From positions 1-27,699 of the forward strand of contig JBEIJY010000033.1 in NCBI GenBank assembly GCA_040380025.1: 27,699 bases of DNA, in the 5' to 3' direction. Below are positions 3,123-25,271 of this stretch, one piece after another. The stretch is from Bdellovibrionales bacterium. Lineage in GTDB: Bacteria > Bdellovibrionota > UBA1018 > CAIMNF01. The notes under the pieces were generated by a model. That model saw only the letters and a list, made by a program, of their open reading frames with translations. It was not told the origin of the DNA and made no database searches. How positions within the stretch are numbered: the stretch's first letter is position 1; every line of letters starts with the position of its first letter. Made by a program: the position numbers and the translations under genes.

Positions 3123-3650
3123 ATGTCCAAATGGATGGAGGCATTCCTCAGGGCCTGCAAACGACTTCCCGCCTACACCGAACGCGCGTGGTTCGCTCCA
3201 GCAGTGGCGGGCCTGGCATTCTTGGACTTCTTCATCTTCATTGTTCCGCTCGATGCGATCGTGATCGGCTCGTTTTTGGCCGCTCCTAGAAAACGATTCC
3301 GAATCGCGTGGATGACCGCCCTTGGCTCCACCCTGGGTGCGGTGGGATTTGCCCTTTTGATCCGGCACCTCGGGATGGGTTTTTTGAATGCAGTGACGCC
3401 CGGAATTCTAGAGGGAGATTGGGCCAGAACCTTGGGAATCTGGTTTCAGAGTTACGGATTTTGGGCTTTGGCGGGCAGTGCATCGATCCCGATCTACCAG
3501 CATCCGGTCGTGGCCGTGGCCGCGCTATCGGCTTTGCCGATGGTGTCGATTTTTTGGGGGATGCTCCTCGGGCGCGTGATCAAGTTCGGGACCTTTGCGA
3601 TCCTTTCGCACCATGCGCGCGTGAGGATGGAGCGTTGGTTCGGGGAGTAG
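3123..3650 (+). CDS. DedA/YqaA (VTT/SNARE-associated) family membrane protein
   Basis: AFLDFFIFIVPLDAIV, TALGSTLGA, SIPIY and LLGRVIKF motifs. ATG 3123 is preferred over the ORF start at 2928. Confidence 0.8.
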   Translation: MSKWMEAFLRACKRLPAYTERAWFAPAVAGLAFLDFFIFIVPLDAIVIGSFLAAPRKRFRIAWMTALGSTLGAVGFALLIRHLGMGFLNAVTPGILEGDWARTLGIWFQSYGFWALAGSASIPIYQHPVVAVAALSALPMVSIFWGMLLGRVIKFGTFAILSHHARVRMERWFGE

Positions 3651-3953
3651 GATGTCTGCCACTACCGGGAGTGTTTGATCTTCCCCGGGAACCAGCCTGA
3701 TCTGACAAGCAAGCCGTTCGCTTTTTCCCGCGTTCAGGCGCTCCAGAAAATCGACTTCAGACTCGTCCGGAGGAGCCAAGTGTTCGGCCTCGAGGACCTC
3801 CACTTTACAGCTTCCACATACGCCCTGCCCGCATCCAAATGTGATTGGAAGATCGATCTCATGCGCCACATCCATCAACGCAGATCCCTTACCCAGTTCG
3901 ACGAACAAATCCTGCTCTTCGAGTCTCAAGCGAATTCTGGATTTTTGATTCAT
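3525..3953 (-). CDS. 2Fe-2S ferredoxin
   Basis: FGCGQGVCGSCKVEV...ERLACQ cysteine motif; AGGAG RBS before ATG 3953. The 3' end overlaps the opposite-strand DedA gene by 126 bp. Confidence 0.88.
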   Translation of the reverse strand: MNQKSRIRLRLEEQDLFVELGKGSALMDVAHEIDLPITFGCGQGVCGSCKVEVLEAEHLAPPDESEVDFLERLNAGKSERLACQIRLVPGEDQTLPVVADILLPEPTLHPHARMVRKDRKGPELDHAPEEHPPKNRHHRQSR

Positions 3954-3966
3954 GAGGTTCTCCTGA

Positions 3967-5190
3967 TCAAGATTCAAGCGATGGCATTACGGTCCGGTAA
4001 CCGAAAATCCATTTTCCCGTGAGAATGGTCAAAACGCCCAAGGTTGCGGCAATCACGCTCATCAAAAGCAAGTTTTCCTGTGGGGTCATCACACCTGCAG
4101 TGAGCGAGACCACGAACCCGCTGATCGGAAGCGAGAAGTTGTTCACAAGAATGATCACCCCGGTCACTTTTCCGAAATCCTCCTTGGGAATGATTCTCGC
4201 CCGCAAGGAGCGTATGTATACATTGAACATTCCGTCGAACGCGAACAGGGTGCTCAGGCCCAAGCCAAACACAAGGATGTTTCCAGCAAGGGACCCGATC
4301 CACGCTCCCAGCACCATTCCAGCGAACGCCATGAGCCCGACCCCGTGAAGCCCGATCCTCCGCACCAATTCCGGGGCGGCCATGAAGGCCATGATGCAGG
4401 CAATGCCAGCGGCGGTTTGCATGAGTCCGAATGCGTGCTCCGGCTGCATCAAGCGTTGGGTAACGATCGCGGGGGCGACCACAAGGATCGTTCCGTAGAT
4501 CAAATTTACAAGCCAGGTCAGCGCGCAGAGCTGAAGAAGCATCTTTTTTTGGAATAGGATCGTAAAACCCCTTGTATAACTTTCGACGACAATCGCCTGA
4601 AAAGACTTCGGAGCGGGTGGCGTGAAATCCGCCTTGGGCAAAGACAAGGAGTTCAGAAAGCTTACTCCGAAGAAAACTGCACCGGATGCAATTACGGATC
4701 TCAGCTCGAAAAACGCCGCCGCCGCCCCGGCCAGAGCCGGCCCGAGGACCTGACTGAGCTGATCCACACCTTGAAGCCACGACTGTGCCTTGGGCATATC
4801 CTCTGCTGGCAACTGACGAGGAAGCGTGGCCTCCATTCCGATGAAGGCCAAGGAGTTCAAGATCGACATGCAAGCCATCATGCCGCTCAAGAGCCAGAAG
4901 GAACTGGAAGGGAAAACATGGATCGCTAAATAGGAACCAAGAATCAGGATCATTCTCCCCAAATCCGAGAAGCGATAGAGATTCCTGACATTGATCCGAT
5001 CTGCGAGACTGCCTGAGACCGGAAGGAAAAACAACCGGGGCAGCCACTCGATCGCAAACGCAAGTCCCGACCATTTCACACTGCCGGTGACCTTCAGAAT
5101 ATACAAAGGCACCGCAAACATCATGAACTGGTCGCCCAGTGCGGCCAACATTCTCGAGAGCATAAAACGATGAAGTCTGAAGCGTGACAT
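3967..5190 (-). CDS. MFS transporter (probable efflux/exporter)
   Basis: About 12 hydrophobic segments, GSLADRINVR motif-A-like loop, IPKEDFGKVTG loop; AGGAG RBS overlapping the upstream stop. Confidence 0.92.
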   Translation of the reverse strand: MSRFRLHRFMLSRMLAALGDQFMMFAVPLYILKVTGSVKWSGLAFAIEWLPRLFFLPVSGSLADRINVRNLYRFSDLGRMILILGSYLAIHVFPSSSFWLLSGMMACMSILNSLAFIGMEATLPRQLPAEDMPKAQSWLQGVDQLSQVLGPALAGAAAAFFELRSVIASGAVFFGVSFLNSLSLPKADFTPPAPKSFQAIVVESYTRGFTILFQKKMLLQLCALTWLVNLIYGTILVVAPAIVTQRLMQPEHAFGLMQTAAGIACIMAFMAAPELVRRIGLHGVGLMAFAGMVLGAWIGSLAGNILVFGLGLSTLFAFDGMFNVYIRSLRARIIPKEDFGKVTGVIILVNNFSLPISGFVVSLTAGVMTPQENLLLMSVIAATLGVLTILTGKWIFGYRTVMPSLES

Positions 5191-5198
5191 GAAGTCTC

Positions 5199-6383
5199 CT
5201 AATTTACGTTTTCGAAAATCTCTTGAATCAAAGTTTTCACCTCGAAACTGGTTTCCCCGCGGACCAGTCCCGCCAGAGGGACCTCCCTCGATTGGTAGGT
5301 GATATTGTTAAAAAGCGGAGCCCCGGCCGCCAATGCATTCCATCGGACCATCCCGGGATGGAACTTGTACGCATCGAATCCATGAACTCCTGAAAACGGG
5401 CCCGGAAGATGGTGCCCCGGGAACACAAACCATCCGAACTGGCTCTGGTACGGAGCCGACACCCTGATTGAAACAGGCTCATTGAGGTACAGCTTCAACT
5501 CCTCCGAGGGGAGATGAATTCCCGTGGCAAGTTCAAAGGTATCGACCACATCCCCTCCTCCCACTCTGGCTCCCACCTCAAGGAAAACAAGCTGGTCTCC
5601 CTTTTGAATCGCCTCCAGATGAAACGCACTGTTCTGGATCCCGACTGCGGAAATACACCGCTGGGCCCAATCCTGATGCTCGCTCCGATGCTCGATCTGA
5701 AACGAACCCAAAGGCTTTCCCCGCGCATAATCAAGACAAGTCCCGATGTATTGACTGGCGACAAAACACTGAATGACACCGTTGGAGACCAGGCCATCCA
5801 TATGAAGAATAGCCCCTTCGACATATTCCTCGAGTTCGAATTTTTCTGGATTCTTTCCGTGCGATCGATACACTTCGAGCCGAGCCAAGGCCTCTTCAAC
5901 AGTCCGATGCACAGTCACATCTTGCGAAGATGCTCCGTCAACGGGTTTCAAAACGACCTTTCCCTCCCAGAGTAGTTCCAAAGAACGACTGACCGCCTCA
6001 TCGGCACGAATCCAGCGGGGAGTTGCGATCCCATGGTCCTGAACCGCGCGCTTCATGGCGACTTTATTTCGGACTTTCTCGACATCCACAGGCCTAGGCC
6101 CCGGAACACCCAGAACCTCACGGATGATCGCCGCATCCATGAGTTCGTATTCCGAGACGGAAATCACCCGATCGAAGTTCTCGTTTCGGGGAATCACATC
6201 CAGAACCTCTCTTGCGGTTCTCTCCACTCCCTGTCGAACGAGTTTTTTGCAATTCAGCCCCGGGGGCAAATCCCCAATTCGCTCATGAAGGCCCACATAG
6301 GTGACCTCGTGCGTGTCGTGGTTGATCCCACGGTGATACTCGATTTTGTAATAGGGCACCCGATGAAGAACAAGGATTTTCAT
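5199..6383 (-). CDS. ATP-grasp domain protein (L-amino-acid ligase-like) #3
   Basis: RNKVAMK, VVLKPVDGASSQDV, LEEYVEG, AFHLE, FLEVGARVGGG. ATGA overlap with the upstream gene. Confidence 0.9.
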   Translation of the reverse strand: MKILVLHRVPYYKIEYHRGINHDTHEVTYVGLHERIGDLPPGLNCKKLVRQGVERTAREVLDVIPRNENFDRVISVSEYELMDAAIIREVLGVPGPRPVDVEKVRNKVAMKRAVQDHGIATPRWIRADEAVSRSLELLWEGKVVLKPVDGASSQDVTVHRTVEEALARLEVYRSHGKNPEKFELEEYVEGAILHMDGLVSNGVIQCFVASQYIGTCLDYARGKPLGSFQIEHRSEHQDWAQRCISAVGIQNSAFHLEAIQKGDQLVFLEVGARVGGGDVVDTFELATGIHLPSEELKLYLNEPVSIRVSAPYQSQFGWFVFPGHHLPGPFSGVHGFDAYKFHPGMVRWNALAAGAPLFNNITYQSREVPLAGLVRGETSFEVKTLIQEIFENVN

Positions 6384-7681
6384 GCCAGCTCCATTTCCGG
6401 AAAATGCATGTGTTCCCGCATGGACTCCTTGAATCTCTCCTCGAAGCGGCTTCCGATTTCCCGGATGTCCGCGAGGGGATCATCAGAAAACACGCAAATC
6501 TCGGCAATGAAACCCGAATTGTCCCTCGGTTCGCGATTCACGAGAGTTCCTCCCCTCTGGGTGAAGCGGAAGTCGCTCCACATCAGGCCTTTTGGAGAAT
6601 CCCTCAGAAGCTTCCGAAGCAACTCCCCGGAAAAGTTGGGGTCATCGATCGCAGGAGACAAAGTTCCATTGAAGGGCGCCGCCAGCTCGAGGATGGCCGC
6701 CACCCCCTTCGGGGCCGGAAGGGTCGTCGGGATTCCCTCACCCAACAGCTGGTCGATCCAAAGCTTGAAGAAATTCACCCCATAGACCTTTTCTGCAAGA
6801 TGCCAGATGCGCATTCCCGCCGGACGTCGGTTTGGCTCGATCACCGCTGATCTGGTGCCGGAGAAATCGAGCTTGATCTCGTTATGAAAGGGCCCGATTC
6901 GCTGGCCGACAAGCAGATTTGCGGCTCTCCCTGCGCGCTCAATGCTCTGAAGACGATCGGAGCTCAATCGAGCGGGAACGATCTGGCCCTTTTCGACAGG
7001 ATACCTCCCCGTTACGCTCATTTTTTCCGTGGCAAAAGTGAGATGGCCGATTCCATCGAAAGAGTACTCCCGATCAAATGGGATCAGCTCCTCACAGATC
7101 AATCCCTCCTTCAAATACATTTCGACTTCATCGAATGCAGCGCGCAGATCGCACCCCTTTTCAAGACGAAGCACTCCCCGATTGTTCCCTTCACAGGACG
7201 GCTTAAGCACAAATCCATTGGGGCACAGATCGGCAAATGCCTCGAGTTCCGTGCGTGTGCTTACCCTTGCAAAACGTGGCACGAAGATCTCCTGCGCCTC
7301 AAGATAGTGTCGCAAGCGGTCCTCGGCCTCTCGATAGCTCAACTTGGAATAGGCGTTTCGGGCAAGAAGAGCCGAGTCCGACTTCATCCCGAGATGCCCG
7401 GCAAGAGTCGCCCCGCTCACGACCCCATTGTCAGAGAACGGAAGAACGGCAGAAATCCCGGAACAATACGGCGCGAGGAATTGCAACGCTTTCGGAATGA
7501 AATCCGCCGCCCGGGGGTCGAGGTCGCCGATCACGGTCGCCACCTCGCGGTCGCAGGGCTGAGGATTCGGCCGAAGCAGGATGGTCTCTGCTTGATACCG
7601 GGATTTCGCATAATCCGTCATGAGTTTCACATCATGAAAGCGGGTAAGGTTGTAATCGACGATGACAAGGTACTTAGACAT
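6380..7681 (-). CDS. ATP-grasp domain protein (L-amino-acid ligase-like) #2
   Basis: FVLKPSCEGNNRGV, ICEELIPFDREYSFDG, GPFHNEIK, VIEPNRRPAG. GGAG RBS before ATG 7681, which overlaps the upstream gene by 8 nt. Confidence 0.88.
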   Translation of the reverse strand: MSKYLVIVDYNLTRFHDVKLMTDYAKSRYQAETILLRPNPQPCDREVATVIGDLDPRAADFIPKALQFLAPYCSGISAVLPFSDNGVVSGATLAGHLGMKSDSALLARNAYSKLSYREAEDRLRHYLEAQEIFVPRFARVSTRTELEAFADLCPNGFVLKPSCEGNNRGVLRLEKGCDLRAAFDEVEMYLKEGLICEELIPFDREYSFDGIGHLTFATEKMSVTGRYPVEKGQIVPARLSSDRLQSIERAGRAANLLVGQRIGPFHNEIKLDFSGTRSAVIEPNRRPAGMRIWHLAEKVYGVNFFKLWIDQLLGEGIPTTLPAPKGVAAILELAAPFNGTLSPAIDDPNFSGELLRKLLRDSPKGLMWSDFRFTQRGGTLVNREPRDNSGFIAEICVFSDDPLADIREIGSRFEERFKESMREHMHFPEMELA

Positions 7682-8978
7682 ATTCAATCTCCAGTGCTTT
7701 TTTTGAAGTTTCGGTAAAGGTTTGAATTTCATCCTTACGGAGGCGTCGGGGAAAACTCCAAAGGGCCTGCCCGAGAAATACCTCGCGCTCGGCATGCGGA
7801 ATCGGTTGTCCGGGCCGGAAATGGATTTTTAGAATATCGGGTTTTGAATGGGAGGATGGCCCGATTTTTCCGATGACTTTTCCGGGTGTCCCGAAAAACA
7901 CGCGAAACAGGGTTCGTACCTCAGAATTCCTGGATTCCATTTCCAGTTTCTCGAGCTTCTTCAGGAGTATTGACATCTCGCTTGCGTCGTGGACAAGAAG
8001 TGTCTCGATCCAGAGTCCCAGAAGCGAAATCCCCCGATGGCGCTGGTTGACGCTCTCCTTGATCAGCGCCCCTCCCACCCTCGGGTTGATCTCGATCAAC
8101 TCCCATCGATCCATTGCCGGATCCCATTTCGCTTCGACATGAAAAAGCCCCCTGTCGAGACCCATGGCTTTCAGGCACTCCCCGACAAACCGCATGCCGC
8201 GATCGGTGTTTCTTTTGGTGAGCGAAACCGGTGGCGACACGCACAGATTCTCAAGAGTCGTGGAGTTCGTCTCTTCCACATCCAGTTTCTCGTGAATTCC
8301 AAGAAAAAACGCCTTTCCGTCCAGGGCGATGGTCTCGAAACTGAACTCTTTTCCCGGAATGTAATCCTCCAGGATAAATTCCTGATTTTCCTGAAACACC
8401 CCGTCGTATTCGATGTCTTTTCCCATTTGCCTTCGGAGCTCGCGGAGGTTCTCCTTGGCCTTGGCGTTGAGCTTGAAGGTACCGTAGGAACCAAGCCCCC
8501 GTCGTGGTTTCACGAACCCGGGTTTCCCCTCATCCATCCATGAATCGAGAGTGCGTTCATTCGCCTCGACGGCATTGACGCCACTCAACCCCTTTCGCTT
8601 CAAACCCAGCCGGAAGGAAAGCTTGTCGATCGCTCCACCGATCGAACCCGGAGGAATGTCATTTCCCCCGAGCTGGGCGTTCCCAAAAGCCATCAGCTCC
8701 CGGTATCCTTCCCAGACCGAAACCACGGCTCTTGGGTTCAGGTTCTTCGCCGCAAACGCCTCGATCGCATTCCTCACATCAGCCAGGCACAATGACGGTT
8801 TTGAAGTCACAATGACATGCTCGCTGAGTTTTAAAATCGCCGGAATCCTCTCCTCGGAATTCTGCGGGATCGAGGAACTCAGGATCACCGGTATGATGTC
8901 GTTTTCCCGGCACCAAACGGCGATGTCCTCGAGAAACGAATATCCCTGATGACTCAGGATGAGGACGGTCTTCCTCAT
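7674..8978 (-). CDS. ATP-grasp domain protein (L-amino-acid ligase-like) #1
   Basis: DKLSFR, FVKPRRGLGSYG, LEDYIPGKEFSFE, GLFHVEAK, LIEINPRVGG. ATG 8978 forms an ATGA overlap with the oxidase stop. Confidence 0.9.
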   Translation of the reverse strand: MRKTVLILSHQGYSFLEDIAVWCRENDIIPVILSSSIPQNSEERIPAILKLSEHVIVTSKPSLCLADVRNAIEAFAAKNLNPRAVVSVWEGYRELMAFGNAQLGGNDIPPGSIGGAIDKLSFRLGLKRKGLSGVNAVEANERTLDSWMDEGKPGFVKPRRGLGSYGTFKLNAKAKENLRELRRQMGKDIEYDGVFQENQEFILEDYIPGKEFSFETIALDGKAFFLGIHEKLDVEETNSTTLENLCVSPPVSLTKRNTDRGMRFVGECLKAMGLDRGLFHVEAKWDPAMDRWELIEINPRVGGALIKESVNQRHRGISLLGLWIETLLVHDASEMSILLKKLEKLEMESRNSEVRTLFRVFFGTPGKVIGKIGPSSHSKPDILKIHFRPGQPIPHAEREVFLGQALWSFPRRLRKDEIQTFTETSKKALEIEYV

Positions 8979-9724
8979 ACCGTACCCTCGACTTTCGAGA
9001 GAACCTGGTCCTCGTGAATCTCGCGAAAAAACATGGCCAGAATGCTCTGATGCTCGTCGATGTATTTTGTGAGACTCCGTACATCCGCCTCGGAGCGAAT
9101 GAGATGGCGGATTGCGTTCCATACCTCTCCCGGGTGATCGTCATTGAGGTCGGTGTGCATGTGCGAGATCTGGCCGGAGACTGCCTTCTCTCCCAGGCGC
9201 GATTTCAACCCGCTGATTTTCTTCGGATCGAGTTTCACATTCACGTATTCCACAAGATACGAATAAACGAGCACGCCCAACGGACCTTCATGGTCCAGAA
9301 GATAAGAAAAGAACCCGGTAAGAAGCTTGGTGGACAGATACGGCTCCGTCGAAAGAATGGTCTCGATGGATGCGCCCGTTTTTTTTGCATCCTCGATGAA
9401 GAGTCGGTCGTGAATCATCTCTTCATACTCGTAGTGCGCCCAGATTTGAGCGGCATCCGGAGAGATTTTGGCCACTTCCGCCAGTGTTCTCGATTCGGAG
9501 ACCCGAAGAAGCCGGATCCTCAAAGCTGTCTCGATCAGAAACCGCTGATAATACGCGGTATGAATTTCACCTTTCTCAAAGTGGGTGGCGAAAGGAACCG
9601 TCGCATTCCATTCTTCGATTTTATGGTCGATATAACGATCGATTTTTCTACGAAGCTCATTCGAATCTTCGATCGTAAGAAAAGGTTTTTGACGTTCCAT
9701 TCCGGTGTGTTTGCATCGATTCAT
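8975..9724 (-). CDS. Heme-oxygenase-like dimetal oxidase (HDO; TenA/PqqC/CADD fold, iron-containing redox enzyme)
   Basis: All-helical-looking 249-aa protein with YEEMIHDRLFIEDAKKTG (EExxH), YSYLVE and HMHTDLNDDH candidate metal-ligand motifs. AAGGGGAG RBS before ATG 9724. Confidence 0.8.
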   Translation of the reverse strand: MNRCKHTGMERQKPFLTIEDSNELRRKIDRYIDHKIEEWNATVPFATHFEKGEIHTAYYQRFLIETALRIRLLRVSESRTLAEVAKISPDAAQIWAHYEYEEMIHDRLFIEDAKKTGASIETILSTEPYLSTKLLTGFFSYLLDHEGPLGVLVYSYLVEYVNVKLDPKKISGLKSRLGEKAVSGQISHMHTDLNDDHPGEVWNAIRHLIRSEADVRSLTKYIDEHQSILAMFFREIHEDQVLSKVEGTV

Positions 9725-9773
9725 TTTGGTTCTCCCCTTGATTTGTGATTGCTTATGGAAGCGAAATGGCGAC

Positions 9774-9790
9774 ATGCACTCTCTGTGCCA
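9774..9790 (-). promoter_or_regulatory. sigma54 (RpoN) -24/-12 promoter for the oxidase/ATP-grasp operon
   Basis: Minus strand reads TGGCACAGAGAGTGCAT: GG-N10-GC spacing with TGGCAC and TGCA. Predicted +1 is near 9764, about 40 nt before ATG 9724. Confidence 0.7.
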
Positions 9791-10155
9791 TCATTCGCGA
9801 GCCTCTTGTTTTCGGATTCGGGGGCGGAAAATTGGGCTCAATTTCGCAGTTCCACCGAGCGAAGCCGGAGATCCGTGCGGATTTTTAAACAATCACTGTA
9901 GATCGCGGGAGAGTTCCAGGCCGGACAAAGCCAGAGGACTGCTGAAGCGAGGGTCGAGACGTCCCATTTTCCGGTCATAATTGTCACGGAGAAGGGACGC
10001 CATTCGTTATATTATTGAAATTTAATAAATCGCGGGCGTTGCGATCCGGTACGAACCAGCCCTCATGTTGATTGAGTGATGACTCAGGAGATTCATCGGT
10101 TGGCAAGCCCCTCGATCGGGCCCAGAACGCAACGACCGCCGCCCGGGACTTCCAC

Positions 10156-10176
10156 AAATGCAATATGTTTGCATTT
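10156..10176 (+). promoter_or_regulatory. Palindromic operator AAATGCAA-N5-TTGCATTT (Zur/Fur-family-like) overlapping a predicted -35
   Basis: Perfect 8-5-8 inverted repeat. Its right arm supplies TTGCAT, followed 17 nt later by TATCAC (10192..10197). Identical arms recur at 12161..12181. Confidence 0.7.
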
Positions 10177-10205
10177 ATGAAAAACTCCGTGTATCACCAA
10201 GGAAC

Positions 10206-11243
10206 ATGCAAAATCGTGAAAAAGAGATCCTGTTCCTGTCTCTCGAGGACGTTCTGGCTTCCGGCGGCGCTGACATGGCCCTTGCCGCTCAGGATGTCGA
10301 CCGCGGCTTCGCCCTTTTGCTTCAGGGTCGCATTCAACAGCCCCACAAGACGACGCTGAAGCCGGCCGGAACCAACGAGCAAGGCACCGGGCTTGTGAAC
10401 TTCCTGCCCTCGTACGTGAACTCCGGAGAGCAATCCATTTTCGGCCTGAAGGCGCTGGGCGCAATGCCCTCGAATGTGGCCAAGGGAATGCCCCGCGCGA
10501 CCGGTTTGATTCTTCTTTTCGACCCCGAAACGAAATCCCCTCTTTGCGTCATGGATGCACAAGTCATCTCGGCCACTCGAACCGGCGCAGTTTCGATGGT
10601 CGCGGCGCGAAAGCTCGTGCGCGAGGATGAGGAAGCAGTCGGGCTCATCGGATCGGGCGTGAACATGCGGACCCAGCTTCTGGGATTGAAACTCGCGCTT
10701 CCGCGTCTGAAATACGCGCGGGTGTATTCGCGCGGGGAATCACGCGAGATCTTCGCGCGCGAGATGTCCGAGAAACTCGGAATGGACATTGTTCCGGTCG
10801 ACTCCGCCCGGGCCGCCAGCGAGGGAATGAAGACGATCGTCACCTGCCTTGCGAATGTGAGTTCTCCGGTGCTCATGGATCGACACGTGGCCGAATCGGG
10901 CGTAACGGTCTTCAACATTGGCTGCTACGAGAGCGAGGCAGTTCTCCTCAATCGCATGGACCGGGTGATTGCGGACATCTGGGAACAAGGAAAACACCGT
11001 GGCGTTCAGACCCATGCCATTGCTGTCCGGGACGGAGTCATTCCCGAAACGAAGATCGAGAATCTCGGTCCCATTCTGATCGGCGAGAAAGCCGGAAGAA
11101 CCCGTTCGGAAGAAAACATTTTCTTTTGTCCGACAGGGCTCGGGTTTCAGGATGCCCTGGTGGCAATGCGTGTGTACCAAACAGCGATAAGCCAGGGCCG
11201 CGGAACCTCCCTTCGCCTGTGGAATGATTCAAAATGGATCTGA
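10206..11243 (+). CDS. Ornithine cyclodeaminase/mu-crystallin family protein (SbnB-like fold)
   Basis: ILFLSLEDV, GLKALGAMPSNVAKGMPRATGLILLFDPET, ISATRTGAVS, Rossmann VGLIGSG, GLGFQDALVA. AAGGA precedes ATG 10206. Confidence 0.9.
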   Translation: MQNREKEILFLSLEDVLASGGADMALAAQDVDRGFALLLQGRIQQPHKTTLKPAGTNEQGTGLVNFLPSYVNSGEQSIFGLKALGAMPSNVAKGMPRATGLILLFDPETKSPLCVMDAQVISATRTGAVSMVAARKLVREDEEAVGLIGSGVNMRTQLLGLKLALPRLKYARVYSRGESREIFAREMSEKLGMDIVPVDSARAASEGMKTIVTCLANVSSPVLMDRHVAESGVTVFNIGCYESEAVLLNRMDRVIADIWEQGKHRGVQTHAIAVRDGVIPETKIENLGPILIGEKAGRTRSEENIFFCPTGLGFQDALVAMRVYQTAISQGRGTSLRLWNDSKWI

Positions 11244-12124
11244 TCAAATCCCTGCGCGCGCGCACCTCATCGATCCCGCAAGAGACTATCACCTTTGGCT
11301 GGGTGGCGCTTGCTCTTCTCGCCTCGTCCATTGAGCCTCTGATCGTGAAGCTTGGCTACCGGACCGGTTCGGATCCGGTCTCGCTTCTGGCGTGGAAGCT
11401 CATTTTCGGGGGGATATTCATGCTTCCGCTCATGGTCCGGAACCGGGACCTTCCGAAACAAAAAATCCCGGTCCTTCTTTGGATCGGTGCCTGCTTCTCA
11501 CTGCACTATCTTGCCGTGTTTTATGCCCTCACCCGGACCTCGGCTTCGATCCTGGTCACTTTTCTTGCCAGCACACCGGCCCTGGTGGCCCTCATGAACC
11601 AAATGAAAATGCGTGAAAAAGCCGGCAGGAAATTCTGGTTCTGGTGGGCGGCCTGCTTTTTCGGAGTCTTGCTGAGCCTGGACCTCTTCGGAACCGCCGG
11701 AGTCCGTCTCGATGGACCGGGAATCGCCCTTTGCGGGACTGCGGTGGCGCTCTCCGCACTCTACCGGGTTTCGATTGATCATTTCACGCGCGGACTGGAA
11801 CCGCTCACGGTATCGGGCGCCATCTTCGCGATCGCGGGTATTGTCGGCCTTGCGCTGATTCCCGTGGCACCCCCGATGAATTCACAGGGCTACTTCTCGG
11901 CACTCTGGATGGGACTTGCCGGCGCCGCCGCGAACATCGCCTTCGTCCAGGCGCTCAAATCGCTGGGCTCCACCCGCATCTCGGTTCTGACCCTTCTTCA
12001 GCGTCCGCTCGTGATTTTTCTTGCGGCAATCCTGCTCGAGGAACCGCTCGGAGCCCTGCAGGTCGCGGGAGTCGCCCTCGTGATTCTGGGGTCGCGTTAT
12101 GCCAAGGTCGAAAAAAGGGTTTGA
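11234..12124 (+). CDS. DMT/EamA family transporter
   Basis: About 10 hydrophobic segments in two repeats; FYALTRTSAS, ALKSLGSTRISVLTLLQRP, LLEEPL. Overlaps the upstream gene by 10 nt. Confidence 0.9.
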   Translation: MDLIKSLRARTSSIPQETITFGWVALALLASSIEPLIVKLGYRTGSDPVSLLAWKLIFGGIFMLPLMVRNRDLPKQKIPVLLWIGACFSLHYLAVFYALTRTSASILVTFLASTPALVALMNQMKMREKAGRKFWFWWAACFFGVLLSLDLFGTAGVRLDGPGIALCGTAVALSALYRVSIDHFTRGLEPLTVSGAIFAIAGIVGLALIPVAPPMNSQGYFSALWMGLAGAAANIAFVQALKSLGSTRISVLTLLQRPLVIFLAAILLEEPLGALQVAGVALVILGSRYAKVEKRV

Positions 12125-12160
12125 TTCGTGCCCTTTTTCATCGTTCGAAACCCTGAAATC

Positions 12161-12181
12161 AAATGCAATTTACTTGCATTT
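12161..12181 (+). promoter_or_regulatory. Second AAATGCAA-N5-TTGCATTT operator, upstream of the ABC operon
   Basis: Reads AAATGCAATTTACTTGCATTT and ends 28 nt before GTG 12209; the first copy ends 30 nt before its ATG. Confidence 0.7.
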
Positions 12182-12208
12182 AAGCTGCGATCAAGGTAGG
12201 CAAATCTT

Positions 12209-12925
12209 GTGATCCAAATTCAATCTCTCTCCAAACAATACCCGTCCCGGGGAGCCACGGTCAGCGCTGTTTCTGATGTCTCCCTCTCGATTCCGAAGGG
12301 CGAGATCTTCTGCCTTCTCGGGGGAAATGGCGCCGGAAAATCCACCCTCGTGAACCTGCTCATGGGATTCCTTGAGCCGAGTTCCGGAGATGCACGGATC
12401 GACGGCGAATCGATTCGGGATTCCATTCCGGCCATCCGGAAAAAAATCACCTACATTCCCGATCAGGTGAATTTGTATCCGGAACTGAGCGGAATCGAGA
12501 ATCTGGAATATTTTTTGAGCCTTTCGTCACCCGAACTCGCCCGCGACCGCGACTTGTTGCGACGCGCGCTTCTTGCCGCCGGACTCGACGAGAAGGCGCT
12601 TACCCGCGCGACCGGGGAATATTCGAAGGGCATGCGCCAAAAAGTGGGGGTTGCCCTTTCGATCGCGAAGAAATCGAAAATTCTCATTCTCGATGAACCG
12701 ACCACCGGGCTTGACCCTGAGGCCTCGAACGACTTTGCCCGTCTTCTGACCTCACGCTCGCGCGAAGAGGGAGTTACGATTTTCATGGTCACCCATGACC
12801 TTTTCCGTGCGAAGCAATCCGGCGACCGAATCGGAATTATGAAATCCGGCCGCCTTGTCTATGACTCCTCCACCCGGGATTTGTCTCATGAATCGCTTGA
12901 AAAAATTTATCTCGATTATATTTAA
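12209..12925 (+). CDS. ABC transporter ATP-binding protein (ABC-2/exporter-like)
   Basis: Walker A GGNGAGKS, signature YSKGMRQK, Walker B LILDEPTTGLD, H-loop MVTHD; GTG start. Confidence 0.96.
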   Translation: MIQIQSLSKQYPSRGATVSAVSDVSLSIPKGEIFCLLGGNGAGKSTLVNLLMGFLEPSSGDARIDGESIRDSIPAIRKKITYIPDQVNLYPELSGIENLEYFLSLSSPELARDRDLLRRALLAAGLDEKALTRATGEYSKGMRQKVGVALSIAKKSKILILDEPTTGLDPEASNDFARLLTSRSREEGVTIFMVTHDLFRAKQSGDRIGIMKSGRLVYDSSTRDLSHESLEKIYLDYI

Positions 12926-14345
12926 TACTGACTGGCGCCGGCACCCCGGATCGGTCATTGCCCGCTCGGAGTTCCGGCAAATGCTCCGGGGGTGGCTTCC
13001 GCTCACACTCGTCGCGTTTCTTTGGTTTTTGATCGCGGTTTGCGGGGTTCTGGAAGCGGGACGGAACCGCAATCTCTCTGAACAGCACCAGACCGTGGCG
13101 CAACTGGAGCGTGAGGCATGGACCGGGCAACCCGACCGGAATCCCCACCGGGCGACCCACTTCGGCCAATTCGCATTCCGCCCCCCTGCTCCGCTCGGGC
13201 CATTCGAGCGGGGAATCCACCCGTATGCCGGATCGGGAGTGTACCTTGAGTCGCACGTTCGGCATGAGCCGGTGCTTGCGCCTTACCTCGGCACCCCTCC
13301 GTCCTCGCGAATGGGTTTTTTTGACATCAATGCCATTTTGAATCTGATCCTTCCCCTTGCGCTTGCGTTCCTCGGGGCACGTCGCATTCCTTACGAAGCG
13401 AGGTCGGGGCTTCTTCGGATCCTCGAGAGCGAAGGCGCGAGCCGATCGGCCATTCTGGTCGGGAAGACCCTAGGGCTTTGGGGAGTTGCCTTTTTTTGCT
13501 TTGATCTGCCCCTGTTTTTGATCGGAGTCGGATGGTTCTCGTGGTTTCTTCCCGCAATGATCCCGCACCTTTTCTTTTTGCTCGTGGTCTGCGCCCTCTA
13601 TCACTTGACCATTTCGGCCGTGATCATCGGGGTCTCCTCGTACGGCCGATCAGAGCAAGGATCCGTGGCACTCACACTCGGAGTGCTCCTTGGACTGAAT
13701 CTGTTTCTTCCGAAGGCACTACCACCCTTGTCTGAGCTTCTTGTTCAGGAAAACGGCGTCGGAGAGCTCAGACGAAACCTCTATACCATGCTGTCTCAGG
13801 CTCCCGACGGACACCGCCCGGGAGGAGCGGAGTTCGAAAAAATCAAGGAATCACTCCTGAATCAGTACGGGGCGAAGGCGCTCGAGGAACTACCCATCAA
13901 CTATGAGGGCGTGATTCTTCAGGTCGCAGAAGAGAAGTCATCCGCCATCTTTCAGCAGGTTTTCAGGGATCAATGGGACCGATTCCTGAGACAGGAAGCG
14001 CTGACCCTTGCCCTCGGCGCGATCGCGCCCGCGTTGACCCAGCGGGTGCTGGCGATGCATTTTTCGCAAACGCACCTTCGCGATCAGATCCACTTCGAAG
14101 ACCGTGTCGAGAAACACCGCTCGGATTTCGTGCGCGAGCTGAATCAGATGGTGACTGCGATTCCCCACAAGGAGAGAAAAACAAAGAAACTCCCCTCGAG
14201 CACCTGGGAGCAAATTCCGTCCTTCCGATTTGAGTCCCTGTCCTTTTTATCGGCGCTCCGGAACGCGTATCTTCCCTTTTTGATCGCGGCGCTTCAGTGT
14301 TTCCTTGCGCTACGATTCGTCGCGAGAAGGAGGCTCCCGGGATGA
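12888..14345 (+). CDS. ABC-2 type permease, DUF3526 family
   Basis: IARSEFRQMLR N-terminus, PDRNPHRATHFGQFAF and YLESH motifs, E..SGLLRIL EAA-like loop, multiple TM segments. Exact start uncertain. Confidence 0.8.
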   Translation: MNRLKKFISIIFNTDWRRHPGSVIARSEFRQMLRGWLPLTLVAFLWFLIAVCGVLEAGRNRNLSEQHQTVAQLEREAWTGQPDRNPHRATHFGQFAFRPPAPLGPFERGIHPYAGSGVYLESHVRHEPVLAPYLGTPPSSRMGFFDINAILNLILPLALAFLGARRIPYEARSGLLRILESEGASRSAILVGKTLGLWGVAFFCFDLPLFLIGVGWFSWFLPAMIPHLFFLLVVCALYHLTISAVIIGVSSYGRSEQGSVALTLGVLLGLNLFLPKALPPLSELLVQENGVGELRRNLYTMLSQAPDGHRPGGAEFEKIKESLLNQYGAKALEELPINYEGVILQVAEEKSSAIFQQVFRDQWDRFLRQEALTLALGAIAPALTQRVLAMHFSQTHLRDQIHFEDRVEKHRSDFVRELNQMVTAIPHKERKTKKLPSSTWEQIPSFRFESLSFLSALRNAYLPFLIAALQCFLALRFVARRRLPG

Positions 14346-15607
14346 AGAATCTTTTTTGGAAAGAATGGAAACTCCTGACCCGGGACCGCGTGTTCCGCGT
14401 GTCGGCGGCGCTCTTTTTTGCGCTCTCGTTTTTCTCGCAAATCCATGGAATCTGGATTCTTCATCGTTTTGAGACCGACCAAAAGCAACTGGTCGAGGCC
14501 TCGAAAGCGAGTACACAACTGTATGCGAAGGAGGCTAAGAGTGGAAAGATCAAGCTCGGCTCGCTTGCGTCGAAAAGTCGCTTTCCGTTCACCGCTCAGT
14601 TTGCTCCGGGTGCCGCACTGGGGGTTGCCGCGGTCGAGCGGTCTCCGCACACCATCGAACTCTCCTTGAAGTCCTTCACCCCGCAGGTGTTCACCCCGGT
14701 ATTCGTGAACCCCCTGCGAACCGCACTGGGCGGATTTGATTTCTGGGGAGTCCTGTCGATCTTTCTTCCGCTTTGGTGTCTTGCGCTGACCTTTTCGTTT
14801 TATTCGCGCGAGAAGGATCAGGGGACCTTGCGACAGATCCAGGCCGAGGGCGGGAGCATCGCTCCGCTCATGGCGATGAAGCTCGCTGTGGTTCTGACGG
14901 TGATCACCTTTTGTGTGTTGATTGCCGTGGCCGTAGGAATTGCTCTCACCGCGCCCCCATCGGAGTGGGGTGGGCTTCTGAGATCGGTTTTGCCCGCGGT
15001 TCTCACCCATACGGTATTCTGGTCATTTCTTGGGACTTTGATCTCGTTTTTGAGATTGCCTGCGATGCAATCCGCGATTCTGGCGGTCGGAGCCTGGATC
15101 ATGTTGAACCTCATGATGCCTGCCGTGAAAACTGCAAATGAGGGTTATGCCCTTCAAGAATCGAGCGTTCGCCTGCTCTCGCAGCAGAGAATTATTTTGA
15201 ATCAGTACTGGGAGAAAGACCGCGCCGGCCCATTGGCCGATCTGAAGCAGCCGCCAGAATGGTCTGTGAACAGCATCGCGACCGAACCCAAGGAATTCTC
15301 GTGGGGGTGGTTTTTTACCGCCCACAATGCGGCGGACCTTGCCGTGCAGCGGGAGCTTCTTGACCTTTTCGAACGGATTCGCGAAACAGCAGAGAAGGTT
15401 TCCTCTTCTTCGATGGCGGGGCTTCTCGAGTCCAAGCTCGATTACGCAATCCACGAGACCCATCTAGACCGGAAGATCATGCTGTATGATCTGTTGTTTT
15501 ACCGGATCCGGCTCCTGGACCACTTGGTCCCGATGATGATCCCGGACAAGGAAATTCCGGTGGAAGAGGCTGCTCGCATTTTGGGAGGAGCACGGGGAAT
15601 TCAGTGA
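14342..15607 (+). CDS. Second ABC-2 type permease, DUF3526-like
   Basis: MKNLFWKEWKLLTRDR, NPLRTALGGFD, SREKDQGTLRQI. AGGAGG RBS and ATGA overlap with the upstream permease. Confidence 0.8.
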   Translation: MKNLFWKEWKLLTRDRVFRVSAALFFALSFFSQIHGIWILHRFETDQKQLVEASKASTQLYAKEAKSGKIKLGSLASKSRFPFTAQFAPGAALGVAAVERSPHTIELSLKSFTPQVFTPVFVNPLRTALGGFDFWGVLSIFLPLWCLALTFSFYSREKDQGTLRQIQAEGGSIAPLMAMKLAVVLTVITFCVLIAVAVGIALTAPPSEWGGLLRSVLPAVLTHTVFWSFLGTLISFLRLPAMQSAILAVGAWIMLNLMMPAVKTANEGYALQESSVRLLSQQRIILNQYWEKDRAGPLADLKQPPEWSVNSIATEPKEFSWGWFFTAHNAADLAVQRELLDLFERIRETAEKVSSSSMAGLLESKLDYAIHETHLDRKIMLYDLLFYRIRLLDHLVPMMIPDKEIPVEEAARILGGARGIQ

Positions 15608-15744: not shown

Positions 15745-17154
15745 TCAGCCCTCGTGTTGATCGAGCAACAAGTCGGCGGATTCCTCGACCCCCTCCTGCG
15801 GCAACAGCTGCTGTGCTTCGGCCTGGGGCAAGGCCTCGACGTTCTTCAGCTTTTGGCCAATGGTTCTCGTTTTCGTTGCGGCCAAGGTGATGGTTTTTTG
15901 GACGGTTTGGAGCTGCTCGCCCGCTTTTTCGAGGATTCCACCAAACTTCCCGAACTCGGTTTTGACCGCACCCAACACCTTCGAGATCTCACCCGACTGT
16001 TTTTGAATCGCAAGGGAGCGGAAACCCATTCGAAGACTGGTGAGGAGTGCAGTGAGCGTCGTGGGACCGGCAATGGTCACGCGATGCGTTTGCTGGATCC
16101 GATCCACAAGCCCGGGGCGCCTCAAAACCTCGGCAAAGAGACTTTCGACCGGCAAAAACAGGATTCCGAAATCCACCGAATACGGCGGATGCACGTACTT
16201 GTCGCGGATGTCACGCGCGCAGGATTCGATGCTGATTTCGAGCTGTTTTGCCGAAGCCTCGGCAAGCTCGGGCAGTCCCTTCTCCTGGGCATCCAGCAAG
16301 CGCTCGTAGTCCTCTTTCGGGAACTTGGAGTCGATCGGAAGCCAGACATGCTCCTGCCCTTCTTCTTTGCCGGGAAGTCGGATCGCGAACTCGACCATCT
16401 CGGGGCTTCGGGGACGGATTCGGACATTCCTCTCGTACTGCTCCGGCGTGAGCATATCCTCCAAAAGGGCACTGAGCTGGAACTCCCCCCAGGTTCCGCG
16501 GGTTTTCACATTCGTGAGCACCTTCTTCAGGTCCCCCACACCAACAGCGAGGTTTTGCATTTCGCCAAGCCCCTGATGAACCTGCTCGAGCTGCTTGCTC
16601 ACCTGGGCGAAAGACTCACCCAAGCGCTTCTCGAGCGTGCCCTGGAGCTTTTCGTCCACGGTTTTGCGCATTTCATCGAGTTTTCCCTCGTTTGAAGTGC
16701 GGATTTCATTCAGACGATTCTCGATGGTCTGATTGAGCTGGGCTTGCCTGCTGTCATTCGATTTCGTGAGCTGCTCGATCGTGGTGGCGAAGGAATCGAG
16801 CTGGGCTTTTTGTCCGTTGGCCACTTCGCCTTGAGCAAGAACGATCGAATCCTTGAAGCCCAGGAGCTGATTGACCATGGTGTCGTTGGCGCTTTTGATC
16901 GAGTCGCCCACTTCCTTTCTGAGGCTCCCCATGGCGGCTTGGAGCTCTTGCCTTGATGAAGTGAATTCATTGCGAAGAGAGATTTCGACCCGGGAGGACT
17001 CGTCGCGGATGGTTTTGTCGAGCGATGCCTGGATTTCCTTCAAAAGAGCGAAAAGCTCATCATTCCGGTTGCTTTTGGACCTGAGAAACAAGAGCACAAG
17101 AAGAACAAGGTTCAAAACCGAGGCAAACAAGAAGATCAGAGACGGAATTTCCAT
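15745..17154 (-). CDS. rmuC: DNA recombination protein RmuC
   Basis: N-terminal TM anchor, coiled coil, TVDEKLQGTLEKRLGESF, NVKTRGTWGE, LPIDSKFPKEDY, FGILFLPVESLFAE, AGPTTLTALL. The start could be 17154, 17166 or 17172. Confidence 0.96.
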   Translation of the reverse strand: MEIPSLIFLFASVLNLVLLVLLFLRSKSNRNDELFALLKEIQASLDKTIRDESSRVEISLRNEFTSSRQELQAAMGSLRKEVGDSIKSANDTMVNQLLGFKDSIVLAQGEVANGQKAQLDSFATTIEQLTKSNDSRQAQLNQTIENRLNEIRTSNEGKLDEMRKTVDEKLQGTLEKRLGESFAQVSKQLEQVHQGLGEMQNLAVGVGDLKKVLTNVKTRGTWGEFQLSALLEDMLTPEQYERNVRIRPRSPEMVEFAIRLPGKEEGQEHVWLPIDSKFPKEDYERLLDAQEKGLPELAEASAKQLEISIESCARDIRDKYVHPPYSVDFGILFLPVESLFAEVLRRPGLVDRIQQTHRVTIAGPTTLTALLTSLRMGFRSLAIQKQSGEISKVLGAVKTEFGKFGGILEKAGEQLQTVQKTITLAATKTRTIGQKLKNVEALPQAEAQQLLPQEGVEESADLLLDQHEG

Positions 17155-17307
17155 ACAATGATCCATTACCACAGAGTCGTGTCATCCGGGGACTTTTGCG
17201 CCGGAATTGCATGCGGATCGCACCGAGAAAAGCACACCGGGGTCTGAACGGAATCATGGATGACACATCTTCATGCGCAAAACCTGATTCTGTTAGAATA
17301 AGGAAAT

Positions 17308-18816
17308 ATGAGCACACGATTTCTTTTTTCCGCCGCATGCGCGATCTTGTTCCTCACTGGCTGCGAATCCGCCAAACGAGCGGCGAATTTGATCGAGACC
17401 CTGTCCCCTCCGCTCGCCGCGAACAACGTTCCTCTTTCTTTGGCTTCGGTTTCTCCCGCCCGAAGCGGACCGGGTGCCAGGATCACTCTGTCGGGAACGG
17501 GGTTTCAAACCGGAGCGACTGTGCAAATCGGAGGGATGAATGCGCAAGTGGATTCTTTGACCTCGACGAGCATCGTGGTTCGGGTTCCCGATCTTCCGGA
17601 AGGGAACACGGACATCCGGGTCATCAACCCGGATCTGGCAGAAGCACAACTCCCCTCGTCGGCTCTTCATGTTTCGTGGGTAACGCAAATCGCAACCTCG
17701 TCCACCCATAGCTGCACTGTGGTGAATCAGGAAATTCAGTGCTGGGGGCAAAACACTCATGGACAACTCGGGAACGGAGTGCCATTTGCCTCCGATCCGA
17801 ATCCGAATCCAGCGGTGTTCGTCCCTCTGCCCGTGAAAGTTCTCGGAATCAACGGCGGAGTCACGGGAATCGCTCTTGGCATGTCCCACACTTGTGCAAT
17901 TGTCAACGGACTCGTGAAATGCTGGGGGCGCGCCAGCAGTGGTCAACTCGGCAACGATCCTGTTGGGAACGACAATTTTCCTCCATCCACTCCTGTCACG
18001 GTTCTGGGGCTTGCCAACGTGACCTCGATCGCCGCTGCCATGAGCACCACGTGCGCCGTGGCGAATGGTGGCGTTTATTGCTGGGGAGGAGGAAGCCTTC
18101 TTGGGAACGGAGGGGATTCGGGGAATGAGTCAGCCAGAGTTCCCGTGGCTCTGACTGCGTTAAGTTCGGGGGTTCAGAAAATCGTATCCGGCGGAGGCAT
18201 GAGTTTCTGGTTCTGCGCTCTCGTGTCCGGAGCGGTTTGGTGTTGGGGGCAGAACGGAATGCTCGGCGACGGCTCAATTGATCAAACCCTCATGACGCCC
18301 TTCGAGGTTCCGGGCGTCATGGAAAGCTTTGTTCCCGTTCCGGTGACCGGTCTTCAGGCGGGAGTGACGGACCTTTGGCTGGGCGGGAATAACGCTTGTG
18401 CAAAAGTGGGAGCTCAAGTGAAGTGTTGGGGCTCCGGCGGATTCCACATGCTTCAGAACGGCTCCACGGATGACGTGTACATTGCCCGAACCGCAACAGG
18501 CCTCCCGTCCCTTCCGAACGCATTGGCTTTTGGTGGAGTCCACGGCTGCGGTGTTTTCTCGGGAGCCGCAAAATGTTGGGGGGCGAATGTGGAAGGCAGT
18601 CTCGGAAACGGGTCTCCTCCAGCTTCGATTTCTTCGGTTCCGGTCGATGTGACCGGCCTCTCCTCCGGCGTGCAAGCTATTCAGAGCAGTTACAACCATG
18701 TTTGTGCGATCAAGAATGGCGGGCTTTACTGCTGGGGATTGGGGAGTAATTCAGGCTTGGGCAACGGATCCCTCGGTACGGCCTTTACCCCGGTGGTTCC
18801 ATTGCTGCAGTGGTGA
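17308..18816 (+). CDS. Lipoprotein with IPT/TIG domain and RCC1/BLIP-II-like beta-propeller repeats
   Basis: Lipobox LFLTGC; VSPARSGPGARITLSGTGF (IPT/TIG); repeated H(T/S)CA...(K/Y)CWG.N..GQLG.G units; AAGGA RBS. Confidence 0.88.
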   Translation: MSTRFLFSAACAILFLTGCESAKRAANLIETLSPPLAANNVPLSLASVSPARSGPGARITLSGTGFQTGATVQIGGMNAQVDSLTSTSIVVRVPDLPEGNTDIRVINPDLAEAQLPSSALHVSWVTQIATSSTHSCTVVNQEIQCWGQNTHGQLGNGVPFASDPNPNPAVFVPLPVKVLGINGGVTGIALGMSHTCAIVNGLVKCWGRASSGQLGNDPVGNDNFPPSTPVTVLGLANVTSIAAAMSTTCAVANGGVYCWGGGSLLGNGGDSGNESARVPVALTALSSGVQKIVSGGGMSFWFCALVSGAVWCWGQNGMLGDGSIDQTLMTPFEVPGVMESFVPVPVTGLQAGVTDLWLGGNNACAKVGAQVKCWGSGGFHMLQNGSTDDVYIARTATGLPSLPNALAFGGVHGCGVFSGAAKCWGANVEGSLGNGSPPASISSVPVDVTGLSSGVQAIQSSYNHVCAIKNGGLYCWGLGSNSGLGNGSLGTAFTPVVPLLQW

Positions 18817-18956
18817 AGCCCATTCCAGGATCGCGCCCGTGTCACCCCTGACCCGATTCTGAAGATCCGGTCATTCCCGACACATCTTCCGGAGCACCCC
18901 CCGCTTTGAGATCATGGAGTAAAGGAGAAATGCTGACCCGGATGATGAAACATCGT

Positions 18957-18983
18957 TAACGTTTTGATCGGTTTCCCCGAAGA
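18957..18983 (+). promoter_or_regulatory. Possible sigma28 (FliA)-type promoter
   Basis: TAAC-N15-CCCGAAGA versus consensus TAAA-N15-GCCGATAA; partial match only. Confidence 0.35.
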
Positions 18984-18986
18984 GCT

Positions 18987-20060
18987 ATGCGAATGCCTCT
19001 GTGTCTGGCGAGAAAACCTTTCGTATGGCTCCTGATGCTGGCGATCCAGACCCTCGCGGGTCATGCGGAATCAGCAGGAGCCAGTGCTCCGGACGTTCAC
19101 ATCGTCCGTGAGGGGGAGGTGCTTTCGCGTATGGCGCAGAGGTATTTCGGGAGACCCATTTATACCCGAAGCGGAGCCTTGAAAAAAATCCTGTCGCTGA
19201 ATCCGGGCCTTGAGCCTCCTTTTCGGATCTATCCGGGCCAATCCATTCGCGTCGGGGGTGATTCGGAGGATGAGACCCAGCCCCTCCCGAGTGACCGGAA
19301 ACCATCGGGAACAGAGCCGCAGACACAACCAGAAGCACGGACACTGCCACAACCACAGCCACAGCCCCGAGACGCGTTTCGGGCCGCGAACTCAATCGAA
19401 GTCGCTCCGGCTTGGGAATTCTTTCGCATCGACGGGTTTGATCCGGTGAATCTCGGCCGGGCCGCGATCCTGTCAAGAACCCATCTGAATGTGCCGGTTT
19501 TTTGGCGGCAGCACTGGTCGCGATCTTCCTCGAGCTACGTTCGATTCCGCGTTTCCCACACCACGTTCGACCCGAATGCCTCTACGGTGCTGACCACCGG
19601 GGCCCTCACCCAGTACGGATTCGCGATGGGGGGCCGCCATGAATGGGCACGGGGACAGTTCATCGGGGGCGAGGCGTCTTTGGATCAGCGTCCGTTTTTT
19701 GCCGCTCCGAACATCAGCAGCGTCGCCATTCAATCCGTGATCATTCCCCGGATCGCTGTCCGGTCTGAAACCACGCTCGCGCAGACGGATCCGTTTCGTT
19801 TCGGGTTTCACCTTGAGGGCGGATTCCTGCTTCCTTCGTATTCCTCGTCGTACTCCATTCGATCAGGGTACGAATACGGAGGAGGATTGTTTCTTGAGCA
19901 ATCCTTTGAACGCTCCCTGATCGGTGCCAGCATTTCCTTCAAGCAAGCCCAACAAGACTCGTCGATCGTAGAGCAAAACATCACAACCCTCGGATTCGGC
20001 CTTCATTACCGGATCCGCTTTGAACTGTCGCAACCATCATCCAAAGAAGGGGGAAGTTAA
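18987..20060 (+). CDS. LysM-domain protein with Pro/Gln linker and C-terminal outer-membrane beta-barrel
   Basis: Signal peptide; HIVREGEVLSRMA...ILSLNPGLEPPFRIYPGQSIRV (LysM); PQPQPQP linker; alternating amphipathic strands ending LGFGLHYRIRF. Start 18987 or 18993. Confidence 0.78.
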   Translation: MRMPLCLARKPFVWLLMLAIQTLAGHAESAGASAPDVHIVREGEVLSRMAQRYFGRPIYTRSGALKKILSLNPGLEPPFRIYPGQSIRVGGDSEDETQPLPSDRKPSGTEPQTQPEARTLPQPQPQPRDAFRAANSIEVAPAWEFFRIDGFDPVNLGRAAILSRTHLNVPVFWRQHWSRSSSSYVRFRVSHTTFDPNASTVLTTGALTQYGFAMGGRHEWARGQFIGGEASLDQRPFFAAPNISSVAIQSVIIPRIAVRSETTLAQTDPFRFGFHLEGGFLLPSYSSSYSIRSGYEYGGGLFLEQSFERSLIGASISFKQAQQDSSIVEQNITTLGFGLHYRIRFELSQPSSKEGGS

Positions 20061-20063
20061 GCC

Positions 20064-25229: not shown

Positions 25230-25234
25230 ATGAT

Positions 25235-25261
25235 TCAACAAATCAAGAGCTCCTCCGATAA
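25235..25261 (+). promoter_or_regulatory. sigma28 (FliA)-type promoter upstream of the second adhesin
   Basis: TCAA-N15-TCCGATAA, with exact 15-nt spacing and a 7/8 match to the GCCGATAA -10 element, inside a 42-bp intergenic gap. Confidence 0.6.
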
Positions 25262-25271
25262 AGCATAAGCC

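Follow-up and report, generated by a model that had tools for sequence, protein, structure and literature searches.

Few zincophore chemistries are known. Staphylopine, pseudopaline and yersinopine are made by CntL and CntM, exported by an EamA protein and placed under zinc-starvation control (PMC7438024); in the accessible part of that CntM survey, the words cyclodeaminase, ATP-grasp and ABC-2 do not occur. [S,S]-ethylenediaminedisuccinic acid ([S,S]-EDDS) of Amycolatopsis japonicum, a Zur-controlled aminocarboxylate chelator made without nonribosomal peptide synthetases (NRPS) or NRPS-independent siderophore (NIS) synthetases, was found via its Zur boxes (PMC4993170, as far as accessible). 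On the transport side, the Caulobacter znuGHI genes encode a Zur-repressed ABC-2 ATPase with two permeases and adjoin the receptor gene znuK (accessible part of PMC4176598). Since current mining is keyed on CntL and CntM, a two- or three-gene module such as the one considered here would be missed. It lies in a 27,699-nt stretch (the window) of contig JBEIJY010000033.1 from a Bdellovibrionales bacterium, whose 2.35-Mb genome (98% complete) we call G000, and it comprises an OCD-fold enzyme with an EamA exporter and a DUF3526 ABC-2 transporter, each unit preceded by a copy of the same palindrome:

10156..10176, no strand: box 1, probable Zur operator controlling OCD-EamA (exact match, position weight matrix (PWM) score 34.7; same box ahead of OCD-EamA in locus L110)
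10206..11243, + strand: 345-aa oxidoreductase of the OCD/mu-crystallin family, in a subfamily without a name (PF02423; predicted NADPH-dependent opine-type synthase)
11234..12124, + strand: predicted EamA/DMT exporter, overlapping the OCD stop (PF00892; 35% identical to the copy in locus L053)
12161..12181, no strand: box 2, probable Zur operator ahead of the ABC-2 genes (exact match, PWM score 37.5; same box ahead of the orthologous operon in genome G011)
12209..12925, + strand: ABC ATPase, ZnuG-like layout (PF00005; 67% identical to the G011 orthologue)
12957..14345 (start codon approximate), + strand: ABC-2 permease with DUF3526, ZnuH-like layout (PF12040, PF12679; 45% to G011)
14342..15607 (start from the listing of open reading frames (ORFs)), + strand: second ABC-2 permease, ZnuI-like layout (PF12679; 38% to G011)

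We give a slight preference to a reading in which, under zinc shortage, Zur operators would release two units, an ABC transporter like ZnuGHI and the OCD-EamA pair of enzyme and exporter, whose enzyme is predicted to make a small opine-type zinc chelator. A Zur box and an ABC system are by themselves ordinary; the new part of the finding is the OCD enzyme class behind likely zinc switches. No description of the module was found in the open literature searched, most subscription papers lying outside that search.

Probable zinc-type operators and the transporter behind them

The palindrome AAATGCAA-N5-TTGCATTT occurs in the window as two exact copies (10156-10176 and 12161-12181), with no further match at up to three mismatches; shuffled sequences (n = 100) averaged 0.11 matches at that threshold, and 0 of 100 reached two. 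The start codons, ATG at 10206 and GTG at 12209, lie 30 and 28 positions past the last base of boxes 1 and 2, respectively. The twin boxes and both distances are therefore as a preliminary description of this DNA had given them. Its proposal that each right arm forms a -35 element survives only in part, in that an overlap of box and promoter is plausible: TTGCAT agrees with TTGACA at three of six positions, and neither box site was called as a promoter in a sigma-70 scan. The hexamers 17 nt downstream of TTGCAT are TATCAC and TAGGCA, and among 25 site-directions in the lineage, eight begin with TA at the 17-nt spacing and four have TAnnnT at 16-18 nt.

Across G000 there are exactly three perfect copies with the 5-nt spacer, and the arms are not found with spacers of 0-4 or 6-11 nt. 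The three sites score 30-37.5 (next best, 14.7) with a PWM that is partly circular, having been trained on 21 sites from relatives that were found with the window's own motif; block shuffles yielded no site at a score of 22 or more. The third copy precedes a TonB-dependent receptor gene (L001:7235-9244, contig C31) that adjoins a tonB gene, and the best NCBIfam and PDB matches of its product are both ZnuD, although under the family cut-off. This frame is interrupted by a single in-frame TAG at codon 440 of 669, a position occupied by Tyr in two congeners; the same letters are present in the probable source run, which is not independent. With this premature stop, the zinc circuit may be incomplete in G000. 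The third box is followed by an extended -10-like element, TGATAGCGT, and then, 7 nt further, by the ATG, which suggests that the receptor transcript is leaderless.

At up to one mismatch, the box is present in 19 of 61 genomes drawn from the same genus, family and order (G000 included), as compared with two for a reversed control. Twenty box regions, from 15 of the 18 other box-bearing genomes, were examined by scanning 132 ORFs near the boxes. Fourteen of these regions, from 10 genomes, contain a COG0523, ZnuA, ZIP or ZrgA/DUF3299 gene, TonB plus a receptor, a DUF3526 ABC system, or a Fur-family gene; one box-linked COG0523 protein scores 599.8 bits against the ZigA model, whose cut-off is 600. 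Since the box in relatives precedes zinc genes, among them COG0523, ZnuA and ZIP, the palindromes are very probably Zur operators of a zinc-repressed regulon, and the metal-repressed regulon envisaged in the preliminary description thus gains considerably from the genome-wide scan and from the copy at the ZnuD-like receptor. These target types are listed for Zur in the accessible part of PMC6103462, where proof is said to need binding or reporter data. A predicted Zur box is hereby gained for an uncultured Bdellovibrionota lineage.

The ABC system is likely to be a zinc-uptake transporter of ZnuGHI-type layout. As in Caulobacter, an ATPase is combined with two ABC-2 permeases, DUF3526 and no binding protein, under a Zur-type box and with a partner TonB receptor likewise under such a box; the comparison is one of layout and DUF3526 family, since the operator sequence differs. 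In G000, moreover, the receptor is on another contig, is ZnuD-like and is interrupted, and a biosynthetic unit belongs to the same regulon. Among 14 control genomes, DUF3526 matches occur only in Caulobacter; ZnuA was not found in G000, nor in Caulobacter within the control list. In a sample of 401 genomes of the phylum, DUF3526 is confined to G000 and G011. The G011 operon (contig C8, L031:6330-10963) consists of the same box, the ABC ATPase, the DUF3526 permease, the second permease and, last in the operon, a CntM-like gene (87 bits; cut-off, 675), which in this genome, where no nicotianamine synthase was found, may be an orphan opine dehydrogenase under zinc control. A metagenome scan with the DUF3526 protein returned no relative. 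Five plasmid DUF3526 loci were examined (of 13 matches), and all have a TonB receptor beside an ATPase and two DUF3526 genes. On a Spirosoma plasmid (L137:3104), TTGCAA-N5-TTGCA lies upstream of a TonB receptor-DUF3526 operon, which fits the Bacteroidetes boxes mentioned in the preliminary description.

The OCD subfamily and its proposed product

The window's OCD protein falls under every NCBIfam cut-off. Its subfamily comprises 186 relatives at E<=1e-30, the best 119 of which are 52-69% identical to it. The predicted structure (predicted local distance difference test score 94.7) has the OCD fold, with template modelling (TM) scores of 0.87-0.90 to piperideine-2-carboxylate (P2C) reductase and SbnB; P2C reductase is the top structural match of the model, and SbnB the best PDB match of the subfamily profile. 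K48, K82, R97, R125 and D316 are invariant in the subfamily and align with SbnB residues. Of these, R97 (the Arg of a PRA/ERA motif) is common to the subfamily and SbnB, whereas P2C reductase and alanine dehydrogenase do not have it; its SbnB equivalent presumably holds the 2-oxoglutarate/glutamate end of the SbnB substrate. At the cofactor site, the Asp of NAD-bound relatives is replaced by Tyr-Ser/Ala-Arg (Ser in 38 and Ala in 9; Arg in 41 of 47). Under the rules of the Rossmann fold, a change from Asp to Ser/Ala-Arg suggests NADPH use, and because of this replacement the sequences suggest that the subfamily works with NADPH and in the reducing direction. The wider family includes imine reductases (accessible part of PMC11876095).

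Two scans gave 66 OCD loci, from which four matches of ~30% identity (one named Halorubrum) were removed; 62 were tallied, 43 of them with at least 3 kb of upstream sequence. A 465-aa gene follows OCD in 42 loci, and the neighbours include a Fur-family gene in 23, an EamA orthologue in 21, CobW in 19, and NikA-like and ZIP genes in two each. The EamA orthologues travel with OCD. The 465-aa protein (L053:11033-12424 and relatives; 37 representatives at E<=1e-30) has no Pfam match and no meaningful NCBIfam match, and the Atlas together with a confident model places it with the circularly permuted ATP-grasp/glutathione synthetases (TM about 0.69 to the eukaryote-type enzymes). This ligase was not found in G000, either in the window or in the rest of the genome, nor, in a search run without a positive control, in G408-G411 and G011. 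Because OCD-EamA pairs without it occur in several tree branches, including the window's own four-row group, the ligase-less short form is to be seen as a stable arrangement, not as a deletion peculiar to this genome.

Zinc signals around the subfamily recur in three lineages. In that of the window, L110 carries the same box between a divergent CobW gene and OCD-EamA. In L053 (Psychromonadaceae) and its tree sister L082, TGTTAT-N3-ATAAC(A/G) lies upstream of the OCD match; in the two genomes this gamma-type pattern gives 22 rows versus 4 control rows, the OCD sites matching by construction, and its other matches precede ZnuA, two CobW genes, an L31 paralogue and a TonB receptor (31 ORFs scanned). 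In Saccharibacteria, the OCD loci combine a Fur-family gene in divergent orientation with ZIP or CobW, and TTGCAA-N5-TTGCAA occurs in L080 and L117. In five other genomes, a search for boxes common to the upstream regions of OCD and ZnuA/CobW_C gave nothing convincing. In L080 (7734-12369) and L117 (7661-12330), ZIP, the Fur-family gene, a CooC/MinD-like ATPase, OCD and the ligase stand together, an unusual biosynthetic content for such reduced genomes.

In the mechanism that we propose, the Fur-family protein encoded on contig C3 would be the repressor, and the OCD enzyme would couple an amine with a 2-oxo acid at the expense of NADPH, so that an N-carboxyalkyl amino acid results. EamA would export this opine-type chelator, and the TonB receptor and the ABC-2 system would return zinc or the zinc complex. 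The glutathione-synthetase-fold ligase, where present, would lengthen the molecule through an amide bond; the short form without it is what the window represents. The opine reading is supported because in L053 and L082 the genes next after OCD-EamA encode NikA/CntA-like importers (NikA-family binding proteins above cut-off; CntA ~421, under cut-off), because the SbnB-type Arg is kept, and because the CntM-like gene shares the ABC operon of G011. That OCD and EamA together would yield an exported chelator seems to us an evenly balanced proposition; the earlier suggestion that the unit makes and moves a small chelator is thus plausible as to the roles of the two proteins and conjectural as to the chemistry. 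The weakest step is the carriage of the OCD product by the DUF3526 system, because OCD and DUF3526 are adjacent only in the window and, perhaps, on one contig of P0036 (OCD, 62%; tree sister of L110) and P0243 (DUF3526, 48%), which come from the same sources, each with 12371 nt as the length of its longest contig, and offer only a hint that the link recurs.

Set beside the opine metallophores, as described in the accessible part of PMC7438024, the module is alike in its zinc-starvation control, its EamA exporter (the PF00892 protein), the CntA-like importer of two loci and a predicted reductive condensation corresponding to the CntM step. It differs in that the reductase has the OCD fold and the partner, where there is one, is a glutathione-synthetase-fold ligase. 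Membership of a Cnt cluster was rejected: nicotianamine synthase (CntL, PF03059) was not found in G000, and the G011 CntM-like query had no tblastn match there. The comparison with CntI made in the preliminary description does not extend to identity, the EamA protein having no CntI-specific NCBIfam match. The [S,S]-EDDS pathway resembles the module in its type of control and product, but the window contains no SbnA-like or lyase partner. The cluster for that compound reportedly holds an OCD-like gene.

Besides the partial circularity of the PWM, several observations weigh against this reading. The six remaining box regions of relatives are all one-mismatch matches and lack zinc genes. No candidate Fur-family protein reached the NCBIfam Zur cut-off, that of contig C3 falling far under it, so that the name Zur rests on the box targets. 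The 23 Fur-linked OCD loci are all of Saccharibacteria type, hence from one clade and not independent counts, and these copies are without EamA. The gamma-type boxes of L053 and L082 are remote from the match start, at 498 and 373 nt upstream, and the Eremiobacterota/Vulcanimicrobiota, myxobacterial and Pseudaquabacterium copies yielded no common box. DUF3526 is beside the OCD subfamily in 0 of 62 loci, and the five plasmid DUF3526 loci contain no biosynthetic gene. Finally, Bacteriovoracaceae-type OCD copies lack the box and are located in CzcA/ZntA/CDF efflux islands, and in L063, L065, L078, L105, L107-L109, L111 and L112, box-less OCD-EamA pairs are in or beside sets of CzcA, ZntA-like ATPase, CDF, MerR and DUF3703 genes; these copies point to metals, but to metal excess.

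Some of the same observations would suit a different role within a Zur regulon, in which OCD makes an intracellular metal buffer or a simple amino acid of the pipecolate, proline or alanine type, EamA is an overflow exporter, and the ABC-2 system imports zinc alone with the TonB receptor. The top structural match to P2C reductase, the glutathione-synthetase fold of the ligase, the exporterless Saccharibacteria copies with their ligase, CooC/MinD-like ATPase and CobW, the copies in efflux islands, and the DUF3526 loci without biosynthetic genes are all in keeping with it. We nevertheless think it improbable, although the best of the alternatives, in view of the three features just cited for the opine reading: the importers directly after OCD-EamA, the SbnB-type Arg, and the CntM-like gene of the G011 operon.

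If the opine reading is correct, the module may, more tentatively, stand for a class of zincophore pathway not described before, with members in at least five phyla, in which an OCD-fold NADPH opine synthase replaces CntL/CntM, the ligase is optional and EamA serves for export. The DUF3526/ZnuGHI transporters, as yet unstudied, would then have the zincophore product as a candidate cargo, and the module would offer a handle on what transporters of ZnuGHI type carry. Cultured carriers exist (Archangium, Sorangium, Polyangium and Pseudaquabacterium), and the genes are small, so the proposal is directly testable.

The sensor, SbnB and the divergent operon

Of the alternatives with little left to recommend them, one holds that the boxes bind another metal sensor, either Fur for iron or a nickel/cobalt sensor. 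Fur models do outrank Zur in NCBIfam for every candidate regulator, and CbiM and NikA-like genes are among the neighbours, but the targets are ZigA, ZnuA, ZIP, ZrgA and the ZnuD-like receptor, and no siderophore or Feo genes were seen among them. G000 has two full Fur-family genes (contigs C3 and C13), and the C13 protein matches the box-linked regulators less well than that of C3. A sensor other than Zur is accordingly very improbable.

SbnB of staphyloferrin B (PDB 4m54), with which the preliminary description had compared the enzyme, shares its fold (TM 0.84-0.90) and the aligned active-site Lys/Arg positions; 47 of 47 subfamily members have SbnB as their best NCBIfam model, and SbnB is, as noted, the best PDB match of the profile. 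That the OCD protein acts as an oxidative hydrolase of SbnB type and supplies L-diaminopropionate to a siderophore pathway is still highly unlikely, and identity with SbnB (TIGR03944) was rejected: identity is ~26%, the score is 156 bits for a cut-off of 327, the NAD-type Asp and NIS synthetases are absent, and no SbnA is adjacent or fused, or present above cut-off in any of five genomes tested, whereas SbnB needs SbnA and the two homologues are consistently adjacent or fused (accessible part of PMC3179956).

The divergent operon to the left of box 1 is a candidate partner of another kind:

3525..9775, - strand: HDO protein, three ATP-grasp ligases, MFS protein and 2Fe-2S ferredoxin; separate MboA-like peptide cluster, outside the zinc module

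The best PDB match of its HDO protein is MboA (PDB 9ypi; E 2e-18), an alkyne-forming oxidase whose cluster has a redox partner and two ATP-grasp ligases (accessible part of PMC13185094). The operon resembles such mangotoxin-type clusters in its HDO, redox partner, ATP-grasp ligases and MFS protein; it differs in that the match is distant, the ligases number three, and no amidinotransferase was seen. It may be among the 25 HDO/ATP-grasp cluster types of Figure S2C in that paper. The combination of ferredoxin, HDO and ligases is found again in G025, G101 and G212 (where the contig ends after the first ligase) and also on Burkholderia and Streptomyces plasmids. A ferredoxin-HDO-three ATP-grasp(-MFS) cluster is ~60% conserved in Burkholderia, Streptomyces, Nostoc and others, and the HDO protein has 385 relatives.

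The preliminary description had tentatively linked this operon to the two boxed units, and one could suppose that OCD feeds a precursor to it, the two together building an ATP-grasp metallophore. The units are adjacent and divergent; the window lacks the usual OCD ligase, so that the three neighbouring ligases could substitute; and both units are rare (HDO in 5 and OCD in 2 of the 401 phylum genomes, overlapping only in G000), which makes their adjacency notable. Against this, 0 of 62 OCD loci contain any left-operon gene, G025, G101 and G212 have the HDO cluster and no PF02423 gene, no OCD is near the cluster in Burkholderia and Streptomyces, OCD-EamA without the ligase is a common arrangement in other genomes, and, as had been cautioned from the start, the operon has no box of its own (best PWM score -1.6 in 3400-10140). 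We regard the link as most improbable. What can be kept of an ATP-grasp-built metallophore is that the OCD pathway has an ATP-grasp partner elsewhere, one that is circularly permuted, differs from the left-operon ligases and is absent from G000.

The remaining features of the window are as follows:

1940-2956: NucS-like gene
15745-17172: RmuC
17308-27699: IPT/TIG-RCC1 protein, LysM protein and two large invasin/Ig-repeat surface proteins

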